Assembly (NCBI GenBank): GCA_965153355.1
Contig: OZ231126.1
Span: 45,136,001-45,200,000, forward strand
DNA from: Flaccisagitta enflata
Taxonomy: Eukaryota
DNA: 64,000 nucleotides
Reading direction: 5' to 3'
The notes beneath the pieces were generated by a model, which was not told the DNA's origin, searched no databases, and saw only the letters and a program-made list of their open reading frames with translations. Both the position numbers and the translations under genes were made by a program. Below are positions 11,818 through 49,511 of this stretch, piece by piece (position 1 is the first letter of the stretch; each line of letters opens with the position of its first letter).

Positions 11818-11895
11818 GTAAATGCTTGAAAAAGACACTTCAACTAAGATTGATAGCATTTCTCCTGCTAAAAAACTTTACCCTCTTTTAACCAG

Positions 11896-12781
11896 TAAAG
11901 TAATGATACTTGATCCAGGAACGCGTCTTAAGCCCAAGTGCCTCTTCCAGTTTGCCGCTTATCGAAGTCCTCCAGAATTCCTCACTCTGTGCGCCTACCA
12001 ACATTTCATGGGCATTAATTCGAGTTTCTCTAGTGACAGAAAACTGAATGTTGAATTTGGAAATGACTTGGATGGAGTTCTGATGTGGATATATCTTCAA
12101 AGCTCATGTGGCAGCCCATTTTTGGGGAAATACGTCGCGACCGTAACACCGAAAGACGTTTGGGTGACTATCATTATTCGTGGTAAGGAATTGATCATCG
12201 ATCGACAAGGAGAGCAAACCAGATATCCCGGACAGCTGCCCGCTTTATTTCGTTCAGCTCCCCCAGAAGATTACAGTAAGGACGTTTGTATCCATCTTTG
12301 TCAAAACCGTATCAATGTTGATTGGGAATCACATCGTGATTACAACTTGAGTACTTGCGAGATTGACCAACATGCTGATGTTAGCTTGACCAATCATGAA
12401 ATATGTTCAGCTGATGAGTGTCACGATGAAACAGCGTTTGCATCCATTGATTATTTCATGGAGTATCTGGCAGCTGATAGAACGAATCTTAATAAAACAA
12501 AACTACAGATTGCTGGTACGATGGGCAACAATTCCGATGTTTGGGTCAAGTCAGACTGCAGTTTTTACGCAGTGAAAAATATCAACATTGAGAAAAAGTT
12601 TGAAGAGTTTTTGGCGGAAATTGGGGGGAACTTTGGACTGCTTGCTGGGGCGTCTGTTTTGACCCTTATTGAAATTGGGGAATTTGTTTTTAAAATTTCC
12701 AAAATATTTTTTTTCCATGAACGTAAGTCAGTGAAGGCTAGCGTTCCGCAAACTCAACAGATTGGAGAACACATAGTCTAA
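11896..12781 (+). CDS. DEG/ENaC channel, terminal exon (extracellular domain and TM2)
   Basis: FLAEIGGNFGLLAGASVLTLIEIGEF is the TM2/GAS selectivity-filter motif; Cys-containing extracellular region; stop TAA; AATAAA near 12839. Confidence 0.9.
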
Positions 12782-13166: not shown

Positions 13167-13718
13167 TGTAAAGAACCGTAGAAAATACTGTCTCGTACCG
13201 TCGTTAGGATCTTGCCGTCCACGCAACTTCCGATTGAAGACGCCACTTCCGGTATGAATACGCCATCGCTACGCCAATCACGCCGACAACGTCACTTCCG
13301 GTGGCGCTGGTCCCATTGTCAGTCTGTGGATGCTATCTCTAATCACTAGGTAAGAAAGTGTATTTAAACTATTATGTACAGAAAGAGAAAGAAGGAGAAA
13401 CAGAAGAGAGGGGGGGGAAGGATTGGTTATTGTCTACCAACTAACTAGCTAGTGTGTATCATCAATAACTACCTCAATCAATTCAATCAATTGTCAACAA
13501 ATGCAGCCAAGCACACTCACCACAGGTTCCACTGTAATCCCCAAAGTGCTTCCAGGTTGAATTGCTTGTTAAAATACACTGACCAACCGAAAGAAAGAAT
13601 GCATCCAGATAATCAAATATATCATCACAAGCAAATGAATAGCAACGCCAACGAAAGGACAACGAAACAGATCGCAGCACAAAGGCGCCAAATGCCAAAA
13701 CATCAACGATATTCCACA
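13167..13718 (-). repeat. 3' LTR of the BEL/Pao element
   Basis: Direct repeat of 22785-23336; preceded on the sense strand by a G-rich polypurine tract. Confidence 0.97.
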
Positions 13719-13731
13719 GTCCCCCCGTTGG
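13719..13731 (-). other. Polypurine tract (plus-strand primer site)
   Basis: Sense CCAACGGGGGGAC directly abuts the TG of the 3' LTR. Confidence 0.8.
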
Positions 13732-13851
13732 AATCCCATTCCAACCTAGTCACACCGTCCTGCCTCAAAAAAAAAACGAGGAGAGACCAAGGATGAAGTC
13801 ACCTGAAATGAGCGGACGAACGGACGGCGAAAGGAGCGGCGCGAGACGCGC

Positions 13852-14781
13852 CTAGCGACGCGAAGGCGCCGCGCCACGCTGTCCTTGTGGCTGCGGAGCG
13901 CGCTGCGCGTCAGGATCCGCGGCAGGCGGCTGCTGATACCGCTGCTGCTGCTGATGCCCTTGACGCTGACCACCGCGTCCGTGGTGTCGAGGGCGAGACG
14001 CTGACGGCGAGGAGGTGGCAACAGGCGCCATCGCTTCAGTCGCCGCAGTTCGCCCGAGAAGACAAACCCCGCGAAAAAAGTCTTCAAAACTCGACGGGGG
14101 GGTTGAAAAAGACGCGTTAGGGAGGAAGGGGGTTGCCTCCCTGTAACGCCTTGACAAGTCTTCGTCATCAAGAGTTTGATTTGACCGAAATCCGCCGTGG
14201 TCGCGGCGCCAGCCTCCACGGCCGCGGCCATTACCACGGCCAGTTCCACGGCCAGCTTGCCGATGTTGTCTTTGAGGGTTGGGGGACGGCGCCGGTGGGG
14301 GGATGGATGAATCTGCCGCCGAAGCGGCAGCCATCGCCTTCCCCCCCTCCGAATGCTTCCCCTTTCCTTTCTTTGAAGAGGATGAAGAAGACGACGTCGG
14401 TGGGTCGGCCTTTGGGGTGACCACAGGAACTCCCCCGGCAGCACCCTCCTCCTCCTGCTTCTTCTTCTTCTTGGAGGGCTTTTCCCTCTCCTTCCTTTCC
14501 TTCGCCTTTTCCTTCATCTCCTTTTCCAACTCCTCCATCTCCCGCTGCATCCCTTCCAACTTCTCCTTCTTCTCCCGCTCAACCTCCGCCTTCACCTCTT
14601 CCATCTGCTTCCTCTTCTCCTCAATCTGCTCCTTCAACCCATCTCTCTCCTCCTTATATTCCAGCTGCCTCTTCCTCCTATTCTCCCTAAACTTCATGTT
14701 CTTCTTCTTCTGCCTCTCCTGCTTCTTCGTCCACCCCCTCTGCTCCCCTTCCTCCTCATCCTCAACTCCTCCCCCCCCTGC
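13852..14781 (-). CDS. Extra ORF3b: Lys/Glu coiled coil, RG-rich and Gln-rich regions
   Basis: Same frame as ORF3a, separated only by TAG at 14784-14782; first ATG 14697; contains EKRKQMEEVKAEVEREKKEK, GRGTGRGNGRGRGGW and QQQQRYQQP. Confidence 0.65.
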   Translation of the reverse strand, partial: AGGGGVEDEEEGEQRGWTKKQERQKKKNMKFRENRRKRQLEYKEERDGLKEQIEEKRKQMEEVKAEVEREKKEKLEGMQREMEELEKEMKEKAKERKEREKPSKKKKKQEEEGAAGGVPVVTPKADPPTSSSSSSSKKGKGKHSEGGKAMAAASAADSSIPPPAPSPNPQRQHRQAGRGTGRGNGRGRGGWRRDHGGFRSNQTLDDEDLSRRYREATPFLPNASFSTPPSSFEDFFRGVCLLGRTAATEAMAPVATSSPSASRPRHHGRGGQRQGHQQQQRYQQPPAADPDAQRAPQPQGQRGAAPSRR

Positions 14782-15919
14782 CTACGCACCACCACGTCTT
14801 CCGCTTCCAAGTCCGGCTCCGGCCCACATTCGCCACTGCCCTGCACGCCACTCAGGAAGGAGAGGGCACCCCCACAATTGATTGGGCATCCTCACTGCCC
14901 TCTCTGGCCCTGCGTCACCCCTCGAATTCCACACCATCTCTCTCTTCCTCCACCTATCCATCTCCGCCGTCAACAAACCGTCCAACTCCGCGATCCTCAG
15001 CTTCCCCTTCCTCCTCTTCGCGTCCTCCGTCGCCACCGCCTCCTTAAACCTCACCACCACCTCATGCTCCTCCATCGCCGAGTCGCCGCGCAAACACGGC
15101 CACCGCGGCGGCTCCCTCGTCTCCGGCTCCCACAGCCCGTACGCCGTACACACCCCCGGCTTCTTCGCAAACCTCCGCATCGCCATCTTCACCTGCCCCT
15201 GACTACACCACAACAACACCGACAGGTGACGCAGGCGTGAGCCCATCGCATGGCCGATCTTGTAAATGTCGAAGCCATCTTCGACTAGGACCCAGTCCAT
15301 TTCGCCATCGACCTTAATCAGTTGGGCCACGTAAACGTTGGGGTAGCGCTTCTGACCGACATGGAAGAGCACCAGGACCGCCAAATTGGAGGCCATGATG
15401 TCCCTCTGCGCCTCGGTCGAGAATTGCCACTCATCGAATTCTTCCGTCAATGCGTTGGAACCTCTACACATCCGGAAGGATCCCACCATGTCCGCTACTT
15501 CCGTCCTGCTCTTCTTCTTCCTCTCCCCATCCTTCTCCACCGCCACCGCCACCTGCGGACCCCCTGGCAACAACAACTCGTCATTCCTATACTCCACCGG
15601 CACCTCCTCCGACTCCACCCTCCTCGGCTCCATCGCCTCGTCCTCCATCTGCACCAAATCAAACTCATATCCTCCTCCCAGCCCCTCCTCACACTCCTCC
15701 CCGGTCACACTAACATGGTGGGATGACATTCTCTCCGGATGCGGCGTCCACAACGATTGACAATTGTAAAAGAGATTGTCTTTTAGCGTGTTGACAATTT
15801 TTAGTGAATCTTTCTTAAAATCCTTCAAGCAAAGGGGCAAAAATACAAGTGCAAATTCAAAGAAATATGGCAAAAACATGGGGACTGGGGCGGGTTGGGG
15901 GGGCACGAGGGAAACACAC
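14782..15919 (-). CDS. Extra ORF3a of the retrotransposon, unknown function
   Basis: Sense ORF of about 380 codons after the integrase stop. Start is either a splice acceptor at 15920/15919 or an internal ATG at 15729. Acidic N-terminal part, then a globular-looking mixed domain. Confidence 0.7.
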
Positions 15920-15984
15920 CTAAGGAAAAAGGGGCAAAGATAACAAGATATCAAAGACCAATTGAAGCAATATACTCGGCATAG

Positions 15985-17138
15985 TCACGCCGATAAACGC
16001 GCCGGGTCAAGTTCCAATCGGACTACTTTGCTCCTATCACGTGTGAATGTCTTCCCATTCGCCGTCCTCACCACCACAGTCCGTACGACGTCGCCTCCAT
16101 CGACTTCCGTGATGACGCCGGTGCGCCAATCTCCCCGTCGACACTGATCATCCACCATGAGAACGACGTCGTCAATTTCCAAATCTTTCTCCACCCGGCG
16201 CCATTTTGGTCGCGCCTGCAAGGCCGAGACATAGTCTCTTTTCCACCTTCTCCAAAACGCATCAGCAATTGCGCGTGATTGGCGCCAAGTATATCGAAGC
16301 GCTTCTGCATCTGGAGGCGAGGGGGGCACAAGGTCGCAACCGGAAGACGCGTATACTCCAGGGCAAAGAAAGTCTATTGGCCGCAAAGCCTGGATCCCCG
16401 GCTCATCACCTACATAGGTAATCGGCCGCGAATTCATGGCCAGCTCTGCCTGGGCCAATACTGTTGCAAAAGTCTCGATGTGGAGATTGTCTTGGTTCAG
16501 TACGAACGCCAAATGTCTTTTTGCAGATTGAACCAAGCGCTCCCATACTCCACCTCGATGTGGTGCAACAGGCGGGTTAAATGTCCATTGTATGCCCGTC
16601 AGCCTTAATTCGGGTTTCGCGGACAAATTCCATGCCTCCATTTCCGCGCGCAGTTCTTTGTCAGACGCGGTGAAGTTGGTGCCATTGTCCGAATACAAAT
16701 GGCGAATCGCTGGGCGGCGAGCTTGAAACCGCAAGAGGGCGCCGACGAAGCAAGAGGCGCTCATGGATCTCAATATCTCGAAATGCACCGCGCGGCACGC
16801 AAGGCAGGTAAAAAGCGCGACGTACACTTTGTGAGATGCTCTCCCGGCGATTTTGCAAGAAGCAGGTCCAAAAACATCCACCCCCGTATTCCCAAAGGGC
16901 AAACACTTTTTAGTCCTCACTTCCGGTAGTGGTGCCATCAGCTGACTTTCTGGGCGTTTAAATTGTTTTGACACTCCACACACGCGCCACGACGCGCGTC
17001 CACAGACCGGCGTCCTTTCGTGATCCAAAAGCGGCGTCGCGATTCACCCAGTACTTGTTCCACGCCGGCGTGCAGCTGACTGAAGTGGATTGACCGGATC
17101 AAGCATGCGTCGGCCTCGCCATCGTGTAGGAGTATCAT
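15985..17138 (-). CDS. pol: Pol: integrase (zinc finger plus DDE core), frameshifted
   Basis: HFSQLHAGV...RFWI...CVEC in 17138-16938, then PFGNTGVDVFGP, FTCLACRAVHFE, SDNGTNF, PPVAPHRGGVWERLV in 17028-15985. Confidence 0.93.
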
Positions 17139-20004
17139 TTTTTAGCGTCAAGTCCAATTCCTCGTCACGCTGGAGTCGTCCTCTGCATCGTAGCAAACCG
17201 GCGTCGTCAACGAAGGGGCATAACGCCGCCAGAGGCGATTTTGCGGCGACTTTTTTAGCTCCAACCGGATCACATTGTTGCAGGGATTTAATTTCCGCGT
17301 GGAAGGCTTGGGATTGAATGGCGCTGACGATCAATTTTTCGGCGTCGGCCAATTCGACGCCGGTGGGCGCCCCAACTTTGTCGGCGTCGTTGTATAACGC
17401 CCGGCGTCGATTGCGGATGATGCACATCATGATCGTGCGTTTCAGCAGTGCGATGCGCCTCAATTTTCCCGTCCACGTCGCCACCTTCTCGCTGACGCGA
17501 ATCACCCACGATTGAGGCGGCGTTCTTTTCGGCGTCGCCGTCGTCGCGAGGATGTGAGCGGGAAATGGGCGTGTCACGATCTGCTTTTCCGGCCATTCGT
17601 CTTCGCCTCGCCATAGATAATCCGGGCCGTTGTGGAATTTGCCCCAATTTGGATCTTGGGCGAGCATCCCTTTGGACGAGTAGTCGGCTGGGTTGAGGTG
17701 GGTTGGTACCCACCTCCACTCCTCCACCTTCGTAAGCGCCTGAATTTCAGAGAGACGATTTGCAAAGTAAACCTTGAACCTTGTTTCAGTGTCATTCAAT
17801 TGCTTTATTACACATTCTGAATCGGTCCAATTTACATAACCATCATAACTCCCTGTTTCTTCAATAATGGTGGCGCGCATTCTGGCTGCGAGGCGTGCCG
17901 CTTGAAGCTCCAAGCGTGGCGTCGACTCCATGTGACCCGCTTCCACATCCTTCAGTGGGACGACGTGCGACTTGGAGCAGACGATGGACACGTGGATTTC
18001 GCCATTTGGACCCTCGTAGCGGACGTAGTACACGGCCCCATACGCCCGTCCACTCGCATCCGAATACCCGTGGAGGACCTTCCTGCCGTCTTGCGTTTCT
18101 GGCGTCGCCGTCCATCTCGTTATGCGGAATGACTCCAAGAACCTGAAGCTTGCTTGCCATTCCACAAACTCGTTGAGGGATACGGTTGGAATGTCTTTGC
18201 TATCCCAACTTTCGAAGACGCGTAGTACTTTTTGCAGAATTAGCCTTGCCCAAATTACGAATGGCTCCAAAAAGCCCAGCGGGTCAAATATTGACGCTAT
18301 CAGTTTGAGCATTTGTCTTTTGGTCTGCACATTCAATTCGGCCTCCGATTTATCTGGCAAGAAGGAAAAAGCATCGGCAGAAAACGAGTATCTAAGGCCT
18401 AACAATTTCGTCGTGTCATCAGTGGCGCCGGATACATCCATTGGCGCCGCCGGCGCCGGATCCGTTGTATCGCCTTCAAGGACTTCCGGGTGGCTTGATC
18501 TCCATTTGCACAGATTCATGCCGGCGTCCTCAAGGGCGGCCGTGATGCCCACACGAAAGTCTTTCGCCACTTTGGTATTGCGCAGTGATTTTATTAGATC
18601 ATCAATGTACATGTTCCTCATCACTGCTTGCACCACGAGGGGGCCGTACTCAGCCGAATGCTGTTCCACGTGGTGTTGCAGAGTGAAGATCGCTACACAA
18701 TTTGATGATTTTGCACCGAAGACGTGGCCAAGGAACTCATTCAAGTCGATTTCTTCTATCTTTTCATCGCGAAACCAGTAGTAACGGAAGAGTCCCGCGT
18801 CGTCCTCGGTGACATAGATTTCATGGAAGTAGTCCTTAATGTCCGCGCCCACGGCGACAGGGCCTTCACACCGGAAGCGCATCAATACGCCTCTGATATC
18901 GTTGGCAAGCTGTGGCCCGTCCAGGAGCTGGTCGTTAAGGCTTGATCCACCCACTGCTGCTTTGCAATCGTGGCAGATGCGGACTTGCCCGGGCTTGCCG
19001 GGCTTGTCCGCCACATGGATTGGAATTGTCCATCTAGGTCGATCTGGTGGCATGTTGGCGTGCACATTTGGATCTATTTTCCTCACGCGCCCTTTTTCCC
19101 AGAATTTGGCCATAGTTTCGAACGTTATTCGGCGCCTCTCTGGGTCCCGCATTAATTGTTTTTTCAGGCGAAATAAGCGGTCTAGGGCCATCGTTGGGGA
19201 ATCCAAATTGTTTAGTGCATCGCAAGTTGCTTGCCTTCCACCTTTATGAAGGACTGGAGTCCGGTAGTGTTCCGTTTTCGGATCCCACCTAATGCCTTCC
19301 TTCATTTGGCGGATGGCAAACTTATCACTGAGAGACATTTCTCGCTTATTTTCGTCCACTTTTTCAAATTCACCGGCATTTATTCTTTTTATGGTTTTTG
19401 CCAAATCTGAATCAATGCTGTGAAAGGAAGCAAAATTGCAAACAAAATATCGCGAGTCAGTATTGTTTCTGGGGCCGATCAAGCCGGCGCCAAGTGGCGT
19501 GGAAATTCCCATGGGTAATCCCTCGGCGCCTTTGAATGTCTCTCCGCCGATCCAGATTCGAGCGTGTTCTGCGCCAATTATTACGCCGATAGAGCATCCG
19601 TCGTCGCCATCCGGAAACGCAGGAAATTCCAGGTCGACGAGATGCTCCATCCCGGCGGCATCCTCAGCGCGTGGTGGTCTGTCGTCCTTCGATGCAATTA
19701 TCTCCCCAAAGATGGCGTTGTTGAGAGTGATGCTGTAGCCGTTGGTGCCTTCAATCACCACATCTGCCACCTCCCTCTCTCCTTCCACCATCTTCTCAAG
19801 GGTGGTTATCGTCATCGTCGTTTTCCTCCCACTTAGTTTTAGTTTCTTACATAAGTCCTTCGACACGACGTGTCGGTTGGCGCCGCCATCCATCAACGCA
19901 AAAGTCTTAACTTTTCTTTCGCCGTTCGTTATGTACAGCGGCAAAATCAACCTCCACGCTCCGTCGTCGCCGCCAACTTTGAAGACGGAGATGCGGCGCC
20001 TCAT
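17044..20004 (-). CDS. pol: Pol: aspartic protease, reverse transcriptase, RNase H
   Basis: TFALMDGGA (protease), GADIKDYFHEI and MYIDD (RT), LHGYSDAS, TPRLELQAA, WTDS, NPADYSSKG (Pao RNase H). Confidence 0.95.
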   Translation of the reverse strand: MRRRISVFKVGGDDGAWRLILPLYITNGERKVKTFALMDGGANRHVVSKDLCKKLKLSGRKTTMTITTLEKMVEGEREVADVVIEGTNGYSITLNNAIFGEIIASKDDRPPRAEDAAGMEHLVDLEFPAFPDGDDGCSIGVIIGAEHARIWIGGETFKGAEGLPMGISTPLGAGLIGPRNNTDSRYFVCNFASFHSIDSDLAKTIKRINAGEFEKVDENKREMSLSDKFAIRQMKEGIRWDPKTEHYRTPVLHKGGRQATCDALNNLDSPTMALDRLFRLKKQLMRDPERRRITFETMAKFWEKGRVRKIDPNVHANMPPDRPRWTIPIHVADKPGKPGQVRICHDCKAAVGGSSLNDQLLDGPQLANDIRGVLMRFRCEGPVAVGADIKDYFHEIYVTEDDAGLFRYYWFRDEKIEEIDLNEFLGHVFGAKSSNCVAIFTLQHHVEQHSAEYGPLVVQAVMRNMYIDDLIKSLRNTKVAKDFRVGITAALEDAGMNLCKWRSSHPEVLEGDTTDPAPAAPMDVSGATDDTTKLLGLRYSFSADAFSFLPDKSEAELNVQTKRQMLKLIASIFDPLGFLEPFVIWARLILQKVLRVFESWDSKDIPTVSLNEFVEWQASFRFLESFRITRWTATPETQDGRKVLHGYSDASGRAYGAVYYVRYEGPNGEIHVSIVCSKSHVVPLKDVEAGHMESTPRLELQAARLAARMRATIIEETGSYDGYVNWTDSECVIKQLNDTETRFKVYFANRLSEIQALTKVEEWRWVPTHLNPADYSSKGMLAQDPNWGKFHNGPDYLWRGEDEWPEKQIVTRPFPAHILATTATPKRTPPQSWVIRVSEKVATWTGKLRRIALLKRTIMMCIIRNRRRALYNDADKVGAPTGVELADAEKLIVSAIQSQAFHAEIKSLQQCDPVGAKKVAAKSPLAALCPFVDDAGLLRCRGRLQRDEELDLTLKNDTPTRWRGRRMLDPVNPLQSAARRRGTSTG

Positions 20005-20044
20005 GTCACGCAGTTTCGGATCCTTTATCGCGGCGTTTTTGTTA

Positions 20045-22689
20045 TCATCTGTTTGTTTCCCGCCGGGTTAGGTTCCGGATGCGCTGAAGGTGGTGGAAGC
20101 CGTTGCACTTGTCGCATGTGATCGTCGACGGACACGCCTTGGCGAGATGGCCTCCTTCAAGGCATCTGAAGCAGATGCCCAAGTTTTTGTTGAACTTCCG
20201 GCGGTCCGACGCGTTCATCTCGCTGTAAGTGGGGCAACTCGCTAGACCGTGTTTTCCGTCGCAACGAGGACAGAGGCCCGGCGTCGTTTTTGAAGCCGGC
20301 GTCAGCAACGCGTCCTTCTTTGCGGCGGCGTTGGCAGTCGTCGCGGAATCTTGGCCGATGCAGCGGGCTTGTTTTGATTGTTGTTGCGATGGTATCCTGA
20401 CAACATTTCAGAAATGGTTTGCTCTTCATCAATGAAATCAAGAAAGTCAGCAAATTTCAAATCTGAACCATTTTTCTTCCTATACCTCACAACTTTCTTT
20501 GCCAACTTATCTTTTAGGAAGGGAAGCTTCTTCTCGACGATTGTTTTGACCACCAACTTGTTCTCGAAGTGTCCGCCTTTTTTGTCTCGGTTGCAAACGA
20601 ATGGAGGGCGCTCATCAACTTGGGCGTAGAAATTGAGCATTCGTTGTGATCTTTTGGTGATCTTTTCCCTGCAACACCCGTCAAAAACATCTCAACGCGG
20701 TTCTTGGCGCATCCCGAACTAATCACATCTCCCAGCGCCTCGTCGGCGGCGGCCTCCGACTTCTTCAGCGTCTCCGCCTCGATCAGCTTGAAGGCCGATC
20801 CCTCAAACCAATGCTGCAACTCGTTCAGCATTTGCTTATTGGATACGCCCGGGATCTCCATCGCCTCGTTGAAGATCTTCCTTATCTTTTCAAAGTCCAT
20901 TCTTTTGGTCGTGTTTCCGGAGAATTTTGGCGGGTCTAGCTTCCTTTAGCTGGTGGATGGCCGTTTGCTTTAGCGCCGCCTCCAACTGTTGTCGCTGCAG
21001 TCGCAAAATGCTCGTCATTAACGTGTCTGAGACATTTGAAGCATAGCTGTTCGCACTGCTGGAAGCTATCGACGGCGCCTTCGAACGTGTTGACGATGAT
21101 CTTGACGCGATTGACAAGCGGCTGGGGCTTTTCACTTCCTGTGGATGTACCGTCGCCGATGTATCTGTCTTTGCCCCTGGCTTCTCGTCTTTCGTCTTGA
21201 TCTCTCTCTTTGTTCTTTCCTGTTCTCCTGATTCCATTTTCTTTGGCTTCACGTCACCCAATTTACGGAAAGGCATTGTCGGTGGTTTTTTGACCTCCGT
21301 CTTTGCCTCTTTTTCCCTTTGGGCCTTCGGCGTAAAAAGCTTCTTTTCGACTTTCGCAGTGGATCGGTAGCGATCTCTCTGGGATTGTGGCGTCTTCACC
21401 TCCTTCTTGGCCGTCGACGTCGGTCTCGACGTCACTCCATTCACCCACGCGCTCGTCAATGCATCCGGAGTTTCGCCACCGAATGCTGCACCTGCGGCGG
21501 TCATCTCCAATCCGGCGCCAGCATCCCTCGACTTTTCTCCCTCATCGACGGCGCCGCTTGCCGTTGACTGTTCGTCTTCGTTCGCCGCTATCAAGTCCTG
21601 CAGCTTCGCCGCGTTTTTGTCAATGTTGTCCATTTCTTTCTCATGGAGGGTTTTGTCGAGGTCCTTTTGCCTTTGTATGTCTTGGATAATGCTTTGATGA
21701 TACGCAATATCCGCGTCCGCTTGCGCGTCGTTGGATTTTATCCGTTCCTTCTCGGCTTCCCTTTTTCTCTGTCTGTCTTTCTCCACCTGCTGTGACATCA
21801 CCGTCGACGTTTTGCTCCTCTGGGATCCCTTTTTTGACGACCTCGTCGAGTGTGTCGTTGACCTGGCATTTTCTGCGTCGTCCTCGCGTTCGGGATCGGC
21901 ACGTGGAGCAACGGAGGCGGTCACACTTTGAGGTCTTTCGGCCTCTTTGTCTTTTTTGTTGGCCTCTGCCGCCTTCCGCCGTTCATCTTCAGCTAGTTGA
22001 AAACCGGGTGGAAGTGGTCGAGTCTTTGGCCGAGTGGAATCATCTGTTGTAAGCGCTGCCGCCGCCGCGGGGGGTGTTGCTGGAGGAGGAGGAGGAGGAG
22101 GATGTGACGGGTTTTGGCGTCTTTCTGGCGTCTGACTGCCGACTACGTTTCCAAGCGCTTTCTTTCCGGCAGTCACAGTCAATGATACTTTCTTTCTTAG
22201 TGAGTTCAACATCGACGCCGGTGGCGCCGTCTCCTTCGTCACTTCCGGTCTCTCCCTCCTTTCCTTTTCGCCTTCACCCTTCCCGCTCGTCCTGCTCTCG
22301 TGCAGCAGCGGCAATTCCCCTATCGCCCCGACGTCCTCCGCCGGGTCGTCAACAGTCTCGTCGACGTCCCCTGCCGATTGCGTCTTGAAGTGGGATTCGA
22401 GCGTTATTTTGTATCGAACCATGTCTTGCATCAATTGACCGGCCATTTCCCTGGCGTTAGGCTCGTCCTCAATTTTGCAGGCATTGTATTCGTCTAAACG
22501 CTTCTCGTAGAGGTCACAGAATGCGTCGCTTTTTAAGTTCAATTCGGTTTGCGCCTCTTCCGACGGTGTTTTTGTCGCGTGGTCGAGGGCAACCGTCATT
22601 GAATTAAAGCTTTTCTCCAATTCTCGCCTCACGTGTGCAACGATGCGCAGGTCCCATACCGTGGCTTCGATCGGTCTGATGTTCGCCAT
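20045..22689 (-). CDS. gag: BEL/Pao Gag region, split by frameshifts
   Basis: 599-aa ORF 22689-20890 continues through pieces 20900-20514, 20640-20302 and 20308-20045; ends in CPRCDGKHGLASC / CFRCLEGGHLAKAC / CDKCNGFHH knuckles typical of BEL/Pao. Confidence 0.88.
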
Positions 22690-22774: not shown

Positions 22775-22784
22775 GTTTAAATAC
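22775..22784 (-). promoter_or_regulatory. Non-tRNA primer-binding site, candidate self-priming PBS
   Basis: Sense GTATTTAAAC directly after the 5' LTR, no TGG; exact reverse complement of LTR sense GTTTAAATAC at 22987-22978. Confidence 0.6.
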
Positions 22785-23336
22785 TGTAAAGAACCGTAGA
22801 AAATACTGTCTCGTACCGTCGTTAGGATCTTGCCGTCCACGCAACTTCCGATTGAAGACGCCACTTCCGGTATGAATACGCCATCGCTACGCCAATCACG
22901 CCGACAATGTCACTTCCGGTGGCGCTGGTCCCATCGTCAGTCTGTGGATGCTATCTCTAATCACTAGGTAAGAAAGTGTATTTAAACTATTATGTACAGA
23001 AAGAGAAAGAAGGAGAAACAGAAGAGAGGGGGGGGAAGGATTGGTTAATGTCTACCAACTAACTAGCTAGTGTGTATCATCAATAACTACCTCAATCAAT
23101 TCAATCAATTGTCAACAAATGCAGCCAAGCACACTCACCACAGGTTCCACTGTAATCCCCAAAGTGCTTCCAGGTTTAATTGCTTGTTAAAATACACTGA
23201 CCAACCGAAAGAAAGAATGCATCCAGATAATCAAATATATCATCACAAGCAAATTAATAGCAACGCCAACGAAAGGACAACGAAACAGATCGCAGCACAA
23301 AGGCGCCAAATGCCAAAACATCAACGATATTCCACA
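22785..23336 (-). repeat. 5' LTR of the BEL/Pao element
   Basis: Direct repeat of 13167-13718 with about 5 substitutions counted by eye; sense reads TGTGGAAT...CTTTACA. Confidence 0.97.
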
Positions 23337-47431: not shown

Positions 47432-47904
47432 TATTCACTTATCTCTCGCCAAATGTTTCTTTTTCTTTCTCTCTTTTTCTCGTTTTCTCCTGTTTTTCCT
47501 GCTTCATGAATTTTCTCTTGTTCCCGGACGGTTTTTTTTCGCCTTTGGAGCTCTTAAAACCGAGAGAGAGAATGACTCCCAAAAGAAATAAACTCAGGAG
47601 AAAGAAGATGAAGAAGAAGAAAATGGAGGGGGAAAAATAGGAAGGAGAAAAACGGAGAAAGCCAAGAAAATAGGAAAGAGAAGAACGAGAGAAAGGAAAT
47701 GGAATAACGGTGGACGAGGGTTTTTGCGTCTAAGGCAAGAGGTAACCTAGGCCCAAGGTAAGTGTTATACTTGACCTTCTTGGCATAAGGGCATGAGAAA
47801 AAACAGATGAAATACTGTGAACTAAACCTAGACTTGGTGCCGGCACATTAGCCGGGGAAGACAAGAAAGCTGAGGAAGAAAACACGTTCAGAAACATGAT
47901 CAAG

Positions 47905-48831
<927 letters not shown>

Positions 48832-49511
48832 ATGCATCTGATGCTGTGAACCAAATTGATAGTGAACGATGGTGAAAAAAGGTCACGCTGTTGATGGTGA
48901 CGATGATGATGGTGACGAAAATGTTGAAAATTTTCGAGTTGATCCAAAATGACACCGCAGACAATAATTAGGAAGAGGAGCCTGCAGAAGCTTCGGAGAT
49001 GATCTGAGCAGACGTTAACAACCCCTCAAACTCAGGAATGTAAATTAAGTGGCTTAAACAATCTACAGCGCCAAAAAAATGTGAACCTCATCATTTACAT
49101 AATGAGTCCCAGTTTTGGAGCCTAATTTCAAACGTGTCTCTCCATGTCCCTACATCCCTATCTACCACCCTCCCCCCCTCCATCTCCCTCAGTGATTTTC
49201 TTTCCTTTCCTTCTCTGGTTATTTTTGACAGGCTAAAAGCTCATGTTCTCTTTTTTTGGAAATGTCGTTAGCGATGTGTGTTCTTTTTTTTTCTTGTGTG
49301 TTCTTTTTTTTTCTTGAAAAGGTTAGACGCCAGATGTCAAAGTCGTAAGCAAAACGCTTTGAACTCTCTCTCTTTCAATTTTAAAGAATACTTAAACAAG
49401 GCCCGATACACGGCTGCTGTAGCCCTTAGTCGCGGACAGACGCCGGGTGGGCAGGAGCGGAAAATCTCGAAAAAGGACTCTGTAACCGACCGACGGACCA
49501 ACCAATCAATG

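Follow-up and report, generated by a model that had tools for sequence, protein, structure and literature searches.

A non-env third gene with a predicted integrase-like core is common to BEL/Pao retrotransposons and LINEs in the genome of Flaccisagitta enflata

What does a retrotransposon encode between its integrase and its 3' long terminal repeat (LTR) when the region does not resemble an envelope gene (env)? This question is raised by a 64,000-nucleotide stretch of the Flaccisagitta enflata genome (assembly GCA_965153355.1, contig OZ231126.1, positions 45,136,001 to 45,200,000 of the forward strand; hereafter the window), the minus strand of which carries a BEL/Pao LTR retrotransposon with an additional open reading frame (ORF3; 13852..15729) behind pol. 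ORF3 is a selected third gene and not an env, as follows from its ratio of nonsynonymous to synonymous substitution rates (dN/dS), its unbroken copies, and the lack of both a transmembrane (TM) segment and a Pfam family, and it is common to BEL/Pao LTR elements and long interspersed nuclear elements (LINEs) of the same genome.

A sequence-only reading of this DNA had described a single frame behind the integrase stop, interrupted once. The stop counts agree: on the minus strand, to which all coordinates refer unless stated otherwise, the frame running from the pol stop (TGA 15987-15985) to TAG 13854-13852 has a single internal stop, TAG at 14784-14782, whereas over 13700-16100 the two alternative minus frames have 21 and 37. 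That frame requires a correction, namely that ORF3 starts at ATG 15729, and its internal stop is not a feature of the family. Own-genome searches covered 794 Mb in 9 contigs, and the one performed with the first half of ORF3 returned at least 126 matches (127 match rows; 126 of 268 candidates were scored). Among the main-family loci, 33 of 56 are unbroken from this ATG to a shared C-terminus (624-630 aa), the 56 being the best-scoring loci and hence biased toward young copies. Compared with its sister copy L048, the window copy shows 35 indels over 9 kb, 28 of which are deletions (mutations or assembly errors); five of the small deletions, specific to this copy, cluster at about 14770-14850 and explain both the internal TAG and the out-of-frame text at residues 298-315 of the window ORF3. 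Insertions measuring between a few hundred bases and more than 4 kb split other ORF3 copies (L121/L124, L123/L128, L197, and L203).

The architecture proposed from the letters, with an acidic start, a globular block, a Lys/Glu coiled-coil stretch, an RG box, and a Gln-rich tail, was found in full, and dN/dS calculated over 29 unbroken copies indicates purifying selection on every segment, with most values close to that of pol. The start codon with a purine at -3 and the acidic N-terminal region (15523..15729) gave 0.16, the core (14860..15400) 0.088, a Ser/Pro hinge 0.38, the Lys/Glu/Arg/Gln-rich stretch with basic clusters, a probable coiled coil judging from its composition (14446..14727), 0.10, the RG-rich box followed by RDHGGF (14188..14253; the RG-rich segment GRGTGRGNGRGRGGW corresponds to 14253-14209) 0.11, and the Ser/Pro/Gln/Arg-rich tail (13852..14187) 0.12, compared to 0.09 at the end of pol. 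Values of 0.09-0.16 in most segments mean that the frame is conserved and not due to chance, which supports the earlier suggestion of a conserved accessory gene. Besides, the purine at -3 of the ORF3 ATG is present in 20 of 20 family representatives, the RG box is kept in diverged families, and the basic, RG- and Gln-rich low-complexity tail is retained in all families. Between BEL families the integrase remains 65-69% identical and the ORF3 core falls to 16-23%, each family conserving its own version; a divergence so much faster than that of integrase resembles what is seen in host-facing proteins.

ORF3 was also correctly judged not to be a typical env. From the AUG on, an unbroken sister copy has no 19-residue hydrophobic segment (maximum Kyte-Doolittle mean 0.96), and 8 of 10 representatives have no TM segment, few Cys, and few N-glycosylation sites; the two with higher hydrophobicity scores peak in a core strand or in an Ala/Val run. 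The signal peptide, TM anchor, and Cys-rich glycosylated ectodomain of an env glycoprotein are thus absent. Searches of ORF3 (21 members included) against Pfam returned no family, a sequence search of PDB gave nothing below E 0.1, and the ESM Atlas gave no usable match. A profile of the own-genome ORF3 families matched 49 proteins among 1.84 billion, and all 10 that were looked up came from ENA; no ORF3 loci were found in metagenome or viral contigs. Six deep-branching proteins from ENA contigs (P0009, P0016, P0019, P0039, P0040, and P0044) have the same core, coiled coil, and RG tail.

When the genome was searched with a distant outside homologue, a second type of carrier was found. A non-LTR reverse transcriptase (RT) lies within 1.5 kb upstream of the ORF3 homologue in 10 of 12 loci, and the three long loci (L209-L211) all have a LINE layout, with ORF1, an endonuclease-RT ORF2 (Pfam Exo_endo_phos_2 and RVT_1), ORF3, a 3' untranslated region (UTR), and a short TTGAA-type tandem repeat as tail; ORF1, an ORF2 with apurinic/apyrimidinic (AP) endonuclease and RT, and a short tandem 3' tail are together the features of APE-RT non-LTR elements. 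Judging from tail type and RT motifs, these LINEs may belong to the CR1/L2 group. In L209-L211 the tandem tail is preceded by a conserved motif in the 3' UTR. The LINE ORF3 has about 600 aa and its own AUG, has no in-frame link to ORF2, and retains the acidic stretch, the charged coiled coil, and the Arg/Gly/Gln tail. Its homology to the BEL form is supported by profile comparison of the two cores (HHalign 99.3%, E 1.2e-20, 198 columns) and by a search with the LINE core alone, which recovered the window copy at E 3.3e-5 along with about 25 LINE-type matches. In the less saturated pairs, LINE ORF3 dN/dS was 0.08-0.16, indicating purifying selection. Hence the gene is not always linked to BEL/Pao pol, as had been considered, since homologues also lie behind LINE ORF2. 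The ORF3 tree groups the LINE forms in one clade without resolving where it attaches, so that transfer may have gone in either direction. No LINE ORF3 was present among 2124 candidates in the protein collection.

Structure prediction and Foldseek, both suggested by the sequence-only reading, yielded a confident RNase H-like fold for the core. The AlphaFold2 model built from 57 sequences reached a predicted local distance difference test score (pLDDT) of 90 and a predicted template modeling score of 0.84, and in a comparison against 48,161 chains the 15 best VIA rows were all retroviral and Ty3 integrases (Z 8.1-9.2), including the mouse mammary tumor virus integrase core (Z 9.1, root mean square deviation 3.5, 132 aligned residues). 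Foldseek ranked the human immunodeficiency virus (HIV) integrase first at E 2.3e-3, with no match in PDB and BFVD at E 0.001, and the best matches of the LINE core model (pLDDT 74) were again integrase cores (Z 7.5-8.7). The likeness to the retroviral/Ty3 DDE cores therefore extends over about 120-150 residues at Z 8-9 in two independent models, but identity is 5-12%, no HHCC domain was seen in ORF3, and the D-D-E triad is missing. In strand 1 the key columns hold Ser in 34, Phe in 36, and His in 32 of 50 rows, and at the end of strand 4 Trp and Ser/Cys stand where catalytic residues would be expected, with no conserved Asp/Glu in either place; the register was deduced from the starts of the aligned ranges, in which model position 46 pairs with HIV 59 and puts D64 on the Ser column. 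The earlier hint of a DnaQ/RNase D-like exonuclease, drawn from a segment that corresponds to strand 3 to helix 1 of the core, held at the level of the RNase H superfamily and found no support for DnaQ/RNase D among the matches listed, the best of which are integrase cores.

Two results limit the case for an integrase relationship. The next structural matches, IstA and the QDE-2 PIWI domain, both scored Z 8.0, and the structure tool itself notes that best Z scores of 7-8 are common, which makes the margin of the integrase matches modest. Moreover, HHalign of the core against shallow BEL and Gypsy integrase profiles gave 11.9 and 19.6, with shuffled maxima of 20.2 and 17.7, and we count this as no sequence signal to integrases above shuffled controls, so that the argument for integrase ancestry comes from the fold. 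On the models, we regard the core as a dead RNase H-like domain that is most similar to the integrase catalytic core and likely descends from integrase.

The way in which ORF3 may be expressed is suggested by the arrangement of the genes in the element. Where the element is unbroken, one frame runs through gag, through pol with its 1343-1344 codons, and through the linker plus ORF3, with a single TGA between each pair. In the window these are gag (20009..22689; broken by small indels, zinc knuckle near its end), the gag/pol TGA (GCG TGA CAT; 20006..20008) as putative readthrough site 1, pol (15988..20005; frameshifted in this copy), the pol stop TGA followed by CTA (15985..15987) as putative site 2, and a T-rich linker of 85 codons, stop-free and in frame with pol and ORF3 (15730..15984). 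The gag/pol junction reads Ala-TGA-C in 24 of 26 cases, the remaining two being broken copies. A gag/pol stop has reportedly been noted in the BEL element Kamikaze. In four of eight inspected pol frames the protease Asp precedes the first Met, and in two more that Met stands directly before the Asp; pol could therefore not start at its own AUG in those frames. At the pol/ORF3 junction, TGA-CT occurs in 84 of the 87 distinct loci (as TGA-CTA in 83), the linker being in frame with the ORF3 start in 76 of the 84 and also stop-free in 73.

After removal of duplicate loci and of nine rows whose locus lacked the end of pol, the linkers contain 27 stops when read in the pol frame; the other frames contain 347 and 412, and shuffles predict 332 per frame. 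They range from 240 to 621 nt, several cannot be aligned with each other, and their amino acid sequence is neutral (dN/dS 0.92, somewhat inflated by local compensated frame changes). A UGA-C(U)A context with a conserved in-frame continuation is the signature of type II readthrough, and Sindbis and O'nyong-nyong viruses, as far as the available part of the source describes them, have UGA-CUA at their readthrough sites (PMC13517186). In five loci of another BEL clade pol ends with TAA, TAG, or TGA-T and the linkers are full of stops, the TGA-CT context and the open linker having been lost together. A second readthrough at pol/ORF3 is thus probable in the lineage of the window element, and in-frame open linkers, TGA-C contexts, and an own AUG with a purine at -3 point to a free ORF3 alongside a rare fusion of Gag, Pol, and ORF3 as the two products. 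In another large BEL family with ORF3 (L194-L196, about 20 similar rows) pol is followed by a plain stop, and a readthrough context occurs at gag/pol (L212). The pol stop of the main families lies in the loop of a possible 6-bp hairpin (window 15979-15993), which is not retained in distant families.

Several observations count against the second readthrough or the importance of the fusion. The copies are related, so the linker counts are not independent trials, and the five non-readthrough loci form one clade in both trees, which makes their contrast a single event. Neither that clade nor the LINEs need the fusion. No stable RNA structure was found in the first 120 nt 3' of either stop (z -2.2 to +2.1), a poly(A) RNA run yielded 29 reads, all repeat-only and hence no evidence of expression, and three marine metatranscriptome contig sets contained pieces 90-99% identical and no splice joint, although such contigs cannot show transcription. 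A search for annotated long fusion proteins found none among 7914 candidates of 1282-3660 aa, which is weak evidence. A changed genetic code was rejected, as each pol frame contains 27-32 TGG codons and ordinary ORFs terminate in TGA. Selection of the linker as a TM segment was likewise rejected, the other two frames being equally hydrophobic.

Considering these results, we tentatively favor the explanation that ORF3, with its modeled inactive core, charged coiled coil, and disordered RG/Gln-rich tail, is a non-catalytic retroelement accessory, most likely a nucleic-acid-binding oligomer that would shield the element or divert silencing. RNA binding, condensate formation, and anti-silencing, as proposed from the letters, are hypothetical functions of ORF3. 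Since ORF3 serves elements that integrate by different chemistries, it should work on a step they share, and because LINEs have no integrase the likeliest job is to bind nucleic acid without catalysis and so guard or accompany the element in the face of host control. Translation of free ORF3 would begin at its own AUG, a subgenomic RNA being the probable template, and ribosomes reading through UGA-C at gag/pol and again at pol/ORF3 would supply low levels of ORF3 fused behind integrase, loading a few copies into the particle. The protein would then act on a step common to both classes, such as host silencing, chromatin, entry into the nucleus, or the particle of RNA and protein, where it would oligomerize and coat the element RNA or replication complex, the coat shielding the element from host silencing or distracting it. 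It is possible, though a step further from the data, that a dead-integrase family has passed between LTR and non-LTR elements of one lineage in response to a common host defense, with BEL/Pao carriers using two serial readthroughs from one frame and LINEs becoming three-gene elements with the gene behind ORF2.

Somewhat unlikely, although the closest competitor to the accessory role, is a function as a targeting or nuclear-import tether that would bind chromatin or import factors and choose where or when the element inserts. Chromodomains and the Ty5 targeting domain at the integrase C-terminus are analogues of such a tether. The fusion would place ORF3 directly behind integrase, while in LINEs it would travel with the ribonucleoprotein; the coiled coil has basic clusters, and LTR elements and LINEs alike could profit from a tether, but the conserved AUG in good context and the loss of the fusion in one BEL clade and in LINEs suggest that the free form suffices.

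For expression, a still less likely alternative to the second readthrough is that the linker is kept open by other means, with ORF3 arising solely as a protein of its own, through an upstream in-frame start on a spliced RNA (adding a hydrophobic N-terminal extension), reinitiation, or UGA editing. A candidate splice-acceptor-like motif (polypyrimidine, TAG|GTGTG; 15915..15930 in the window) occurs in 64 of 87 loci, many copies have in-frame ATGs after it, several linkers reach TM-like hydrophobicity, and Tca2 illustrates, in the portion of the source available, that readthrough does not have to follow from a gag-UGA-pol layout (PMC2194720). If splicing were the sole explanation, the stretch between the pol stop and this motif would have no need to be open, and yet it holds 1 stop against 48 expected in the 64 loci (lengths 65, 74, and 77); moreover, hydrophobicity is no higher in the coding frame, and the joint loss of context and open linker speaks for a second readthrough.

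It is improbable that the core is a duplicated dead integrase forming heterodimers with the integrase of the element, as a structural or inhibitory intasome subunit. Such a role would fit the integrase-like fold and the position of ORF3 next to integrase and in frame with it, but ORF3 is conserved in LINEs that encode no integrase, diverges far beyond the integrase it would have to bind, and shows no sequence similarity to it. That ORF3 resembles the rotifer ORF3s in being an active or DEDD-type exonuclease, one that would trim small RNAs or those of the element, is very improbable: the RNase H-like fold and the precedent of DEDDy ORF3s shared between retroelement classes, described in the accessible part of one study (PMC5408684), would agree with it, but column counts found neither the DxE of Exo I nor the later Asp residues of DEDD/DnaQ enzymes, the acidic residues of strands 1 and 4 and any Pfam match in 21 members are lacking, and no DEDD exonuclease was among the 50 VIA matches listed for either the BEL or the LINE model, in which integrases lead. 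Least probable of all is a role in spread between cells as a membrane protein or env of unusual type, to which the env position, the hydrophobic linker, and the SIRE1 env-like protein made by pol stop suppression (PMC2194720, in the part available) would lend themselves, as it would have to lack a TM segment, have few Cys and N-glycosylation sites and a cytosolic-type fold, and be carried by LINEs, which make no particles.

The closest known systems share some of these properties. In the available sections of the relevant paper, LTR elements of bdelloid rotifers carry ORF3s of DEDDy and GDSL type that also occur in the Penelope-like Athena/Terminon elements (PMC5408684); like ORF3 of the present elements, these are non-env third ORFs behind pol of a type common to different retroelement classes in one host, and one of them has an RNase H-superfamily fold. 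The same sections describe Gypsy-like hosts, intact catalytic residues, a separate ORF without a coiled coil, and report no departure from neutrality, unlike the BEL/Pao and APE-RT LINE carriers described here, with catalytic residues absent, integrase rather than DEDDy enzymes as best match, a coiled coil and RG tail, dN/dS of about 0.1, and an in-frame link to pol. Single in-frame stops between adjacent genes are known from SIRE1 (pol/env-like, stop suppression) and from murine leukemia virus and Tca2 (gag/pol), the Tca2 stop showing no readthrough in yeast tests (PMC2194720). As far as that source was available, each of these has one such stop, whereas the BEL/Pao elements have two, one after the other in a single frame and each of them UGA-C, and the third gene is not env-like here, unlike that of SIRE1. 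Type II readthrough of alphaviruses uses UGA-CUA/CGG contexts in the accessible part of its description (PMC13517186), and UGA CUA (G) occurs here at pol/ORF3 and in some families at gag/pol; the stimulatory stem-loop of alphaviruses was not detected and readthrough is predicted from sequence in our elements.

Within Belpaoviridae, gag and pol form one continuous or two overlapping genes according to the ICTV, the international committee for virus taxonomy (PMC8742986), and env is an optional third gene (PMC8742986; PMC3118150, seen in part). Tas and Cer7 also have a third gene before the 3' LTR, but theirs are envelope glycoproteins in the available text of the sources (PMC8742986; PMC554778), and Atlas is another env-bearing member. 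Accessory domains common to LINEs and LTR elements have a precedent in the viral helicases of insects (PMC6338049, available in part), and the accessible part of the rotifer study lists Maelstrom and EXD1 as dead RNase H-fold proteins of the piRNA pathway (PMC5408684). The resemblance of ORF3 to these two is that of a dead nucleic-acid-binding fold. VANC is an anti-silencing protein encoded by a transposable element, and it resembles ORF3 as a transposon accessory gene; in all three cases a functional likeness is hypothetical. The literature search, which had most subscription journals, supplements, Repbase, and Dfam outside its scope, found no description of the ORF3 family, a prior annotation being possible, nor of a gene that follows ORF2 in LINEs and also occurs in BEL elements, nor of readthrough stops placed two in a row.

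The remaining features of the window element identify it as a BEL/Pao LTR retrotransposon of a young family. Its 5' LTR (22785..23336; 552 bp, TGTGGA...TTTACA) and 3' LTR (13167..13718; 552 bp) differ by 5 mismatches, have TG...CA ends, and are flanked on both sides by an ATATC target-site duplication, and a polypurine tract (13719..13729) is present. The window gag matches zf-CCHC (E 0.0045) and that of the sister copy weakly matches DUF1759 (E 0.0017), while pol has the order protease-RT-RNase H-integrase with BEL-specific Pfam domains (Asp protease, Peptidase_A17 at E 4e-33, Integrase_H2C2, rve, and DUF5641). The in-frame TGA departs from the continuous or overlapping gag and pol of Belpaoviridae; it is an expression variant and no ground to doubt membership in BEL/Pao. 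By eye, no TGG-type tRNA primer site follows the 5' LTR in 3 of 3 readable junctions, host tRNAs not having been compared. The first bases after the 5' LTR are complementary to the LTR interior (window 22775-22784, 10 nt, with LTR offset about 349; 12 nt in the L116 family and 8 nt in the L149 family, junctions L214 and L213), and self-priming is possible by analogy with the Tf1 retrotransposon, which uses it. A splice-donor-like GTGAGT lies about 200 nt into the LTR (window 23133-23138 and 13515-13520) and was found in four of the LTR starts scanned (L031, L048, L194, and L196); if self-priming holds, it may be upstream of the transcription start. Another donor-like site directly precedes the gag ATG.

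Elsewhere in the window, an open frame on the plus strand just past the 3' LTR (11822-12781) weakly matches the amiloride-sensitive sodium channel (ASC) family (E 1e-5) and is probably a piece of a host gene. A long palindrome (996-1617; 309-nt arms, 89% complementary, 4-nt loop) is foldback-like or resembles a miniature inverted-repeat transposable element (MITE), and short-period tandem arrays of about 340 nt form an inverted pair at 47888-48841.

The prevailing view credits animal retrotransposons with few self-encoded proteins that counter host silencing. A gene under strong selection in two mechanistically unrelated retroelement classes would point to a common host barrier and offers a concrete protein to test. 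Both a pseudo-integrase reused outside integration and a LINE gene located 3' of ORF2 would be unusual, and each is directly testable. A retroelement with two serial readthrough stops would be unusual as well, and for that prediction a natural clade without the second one is available.
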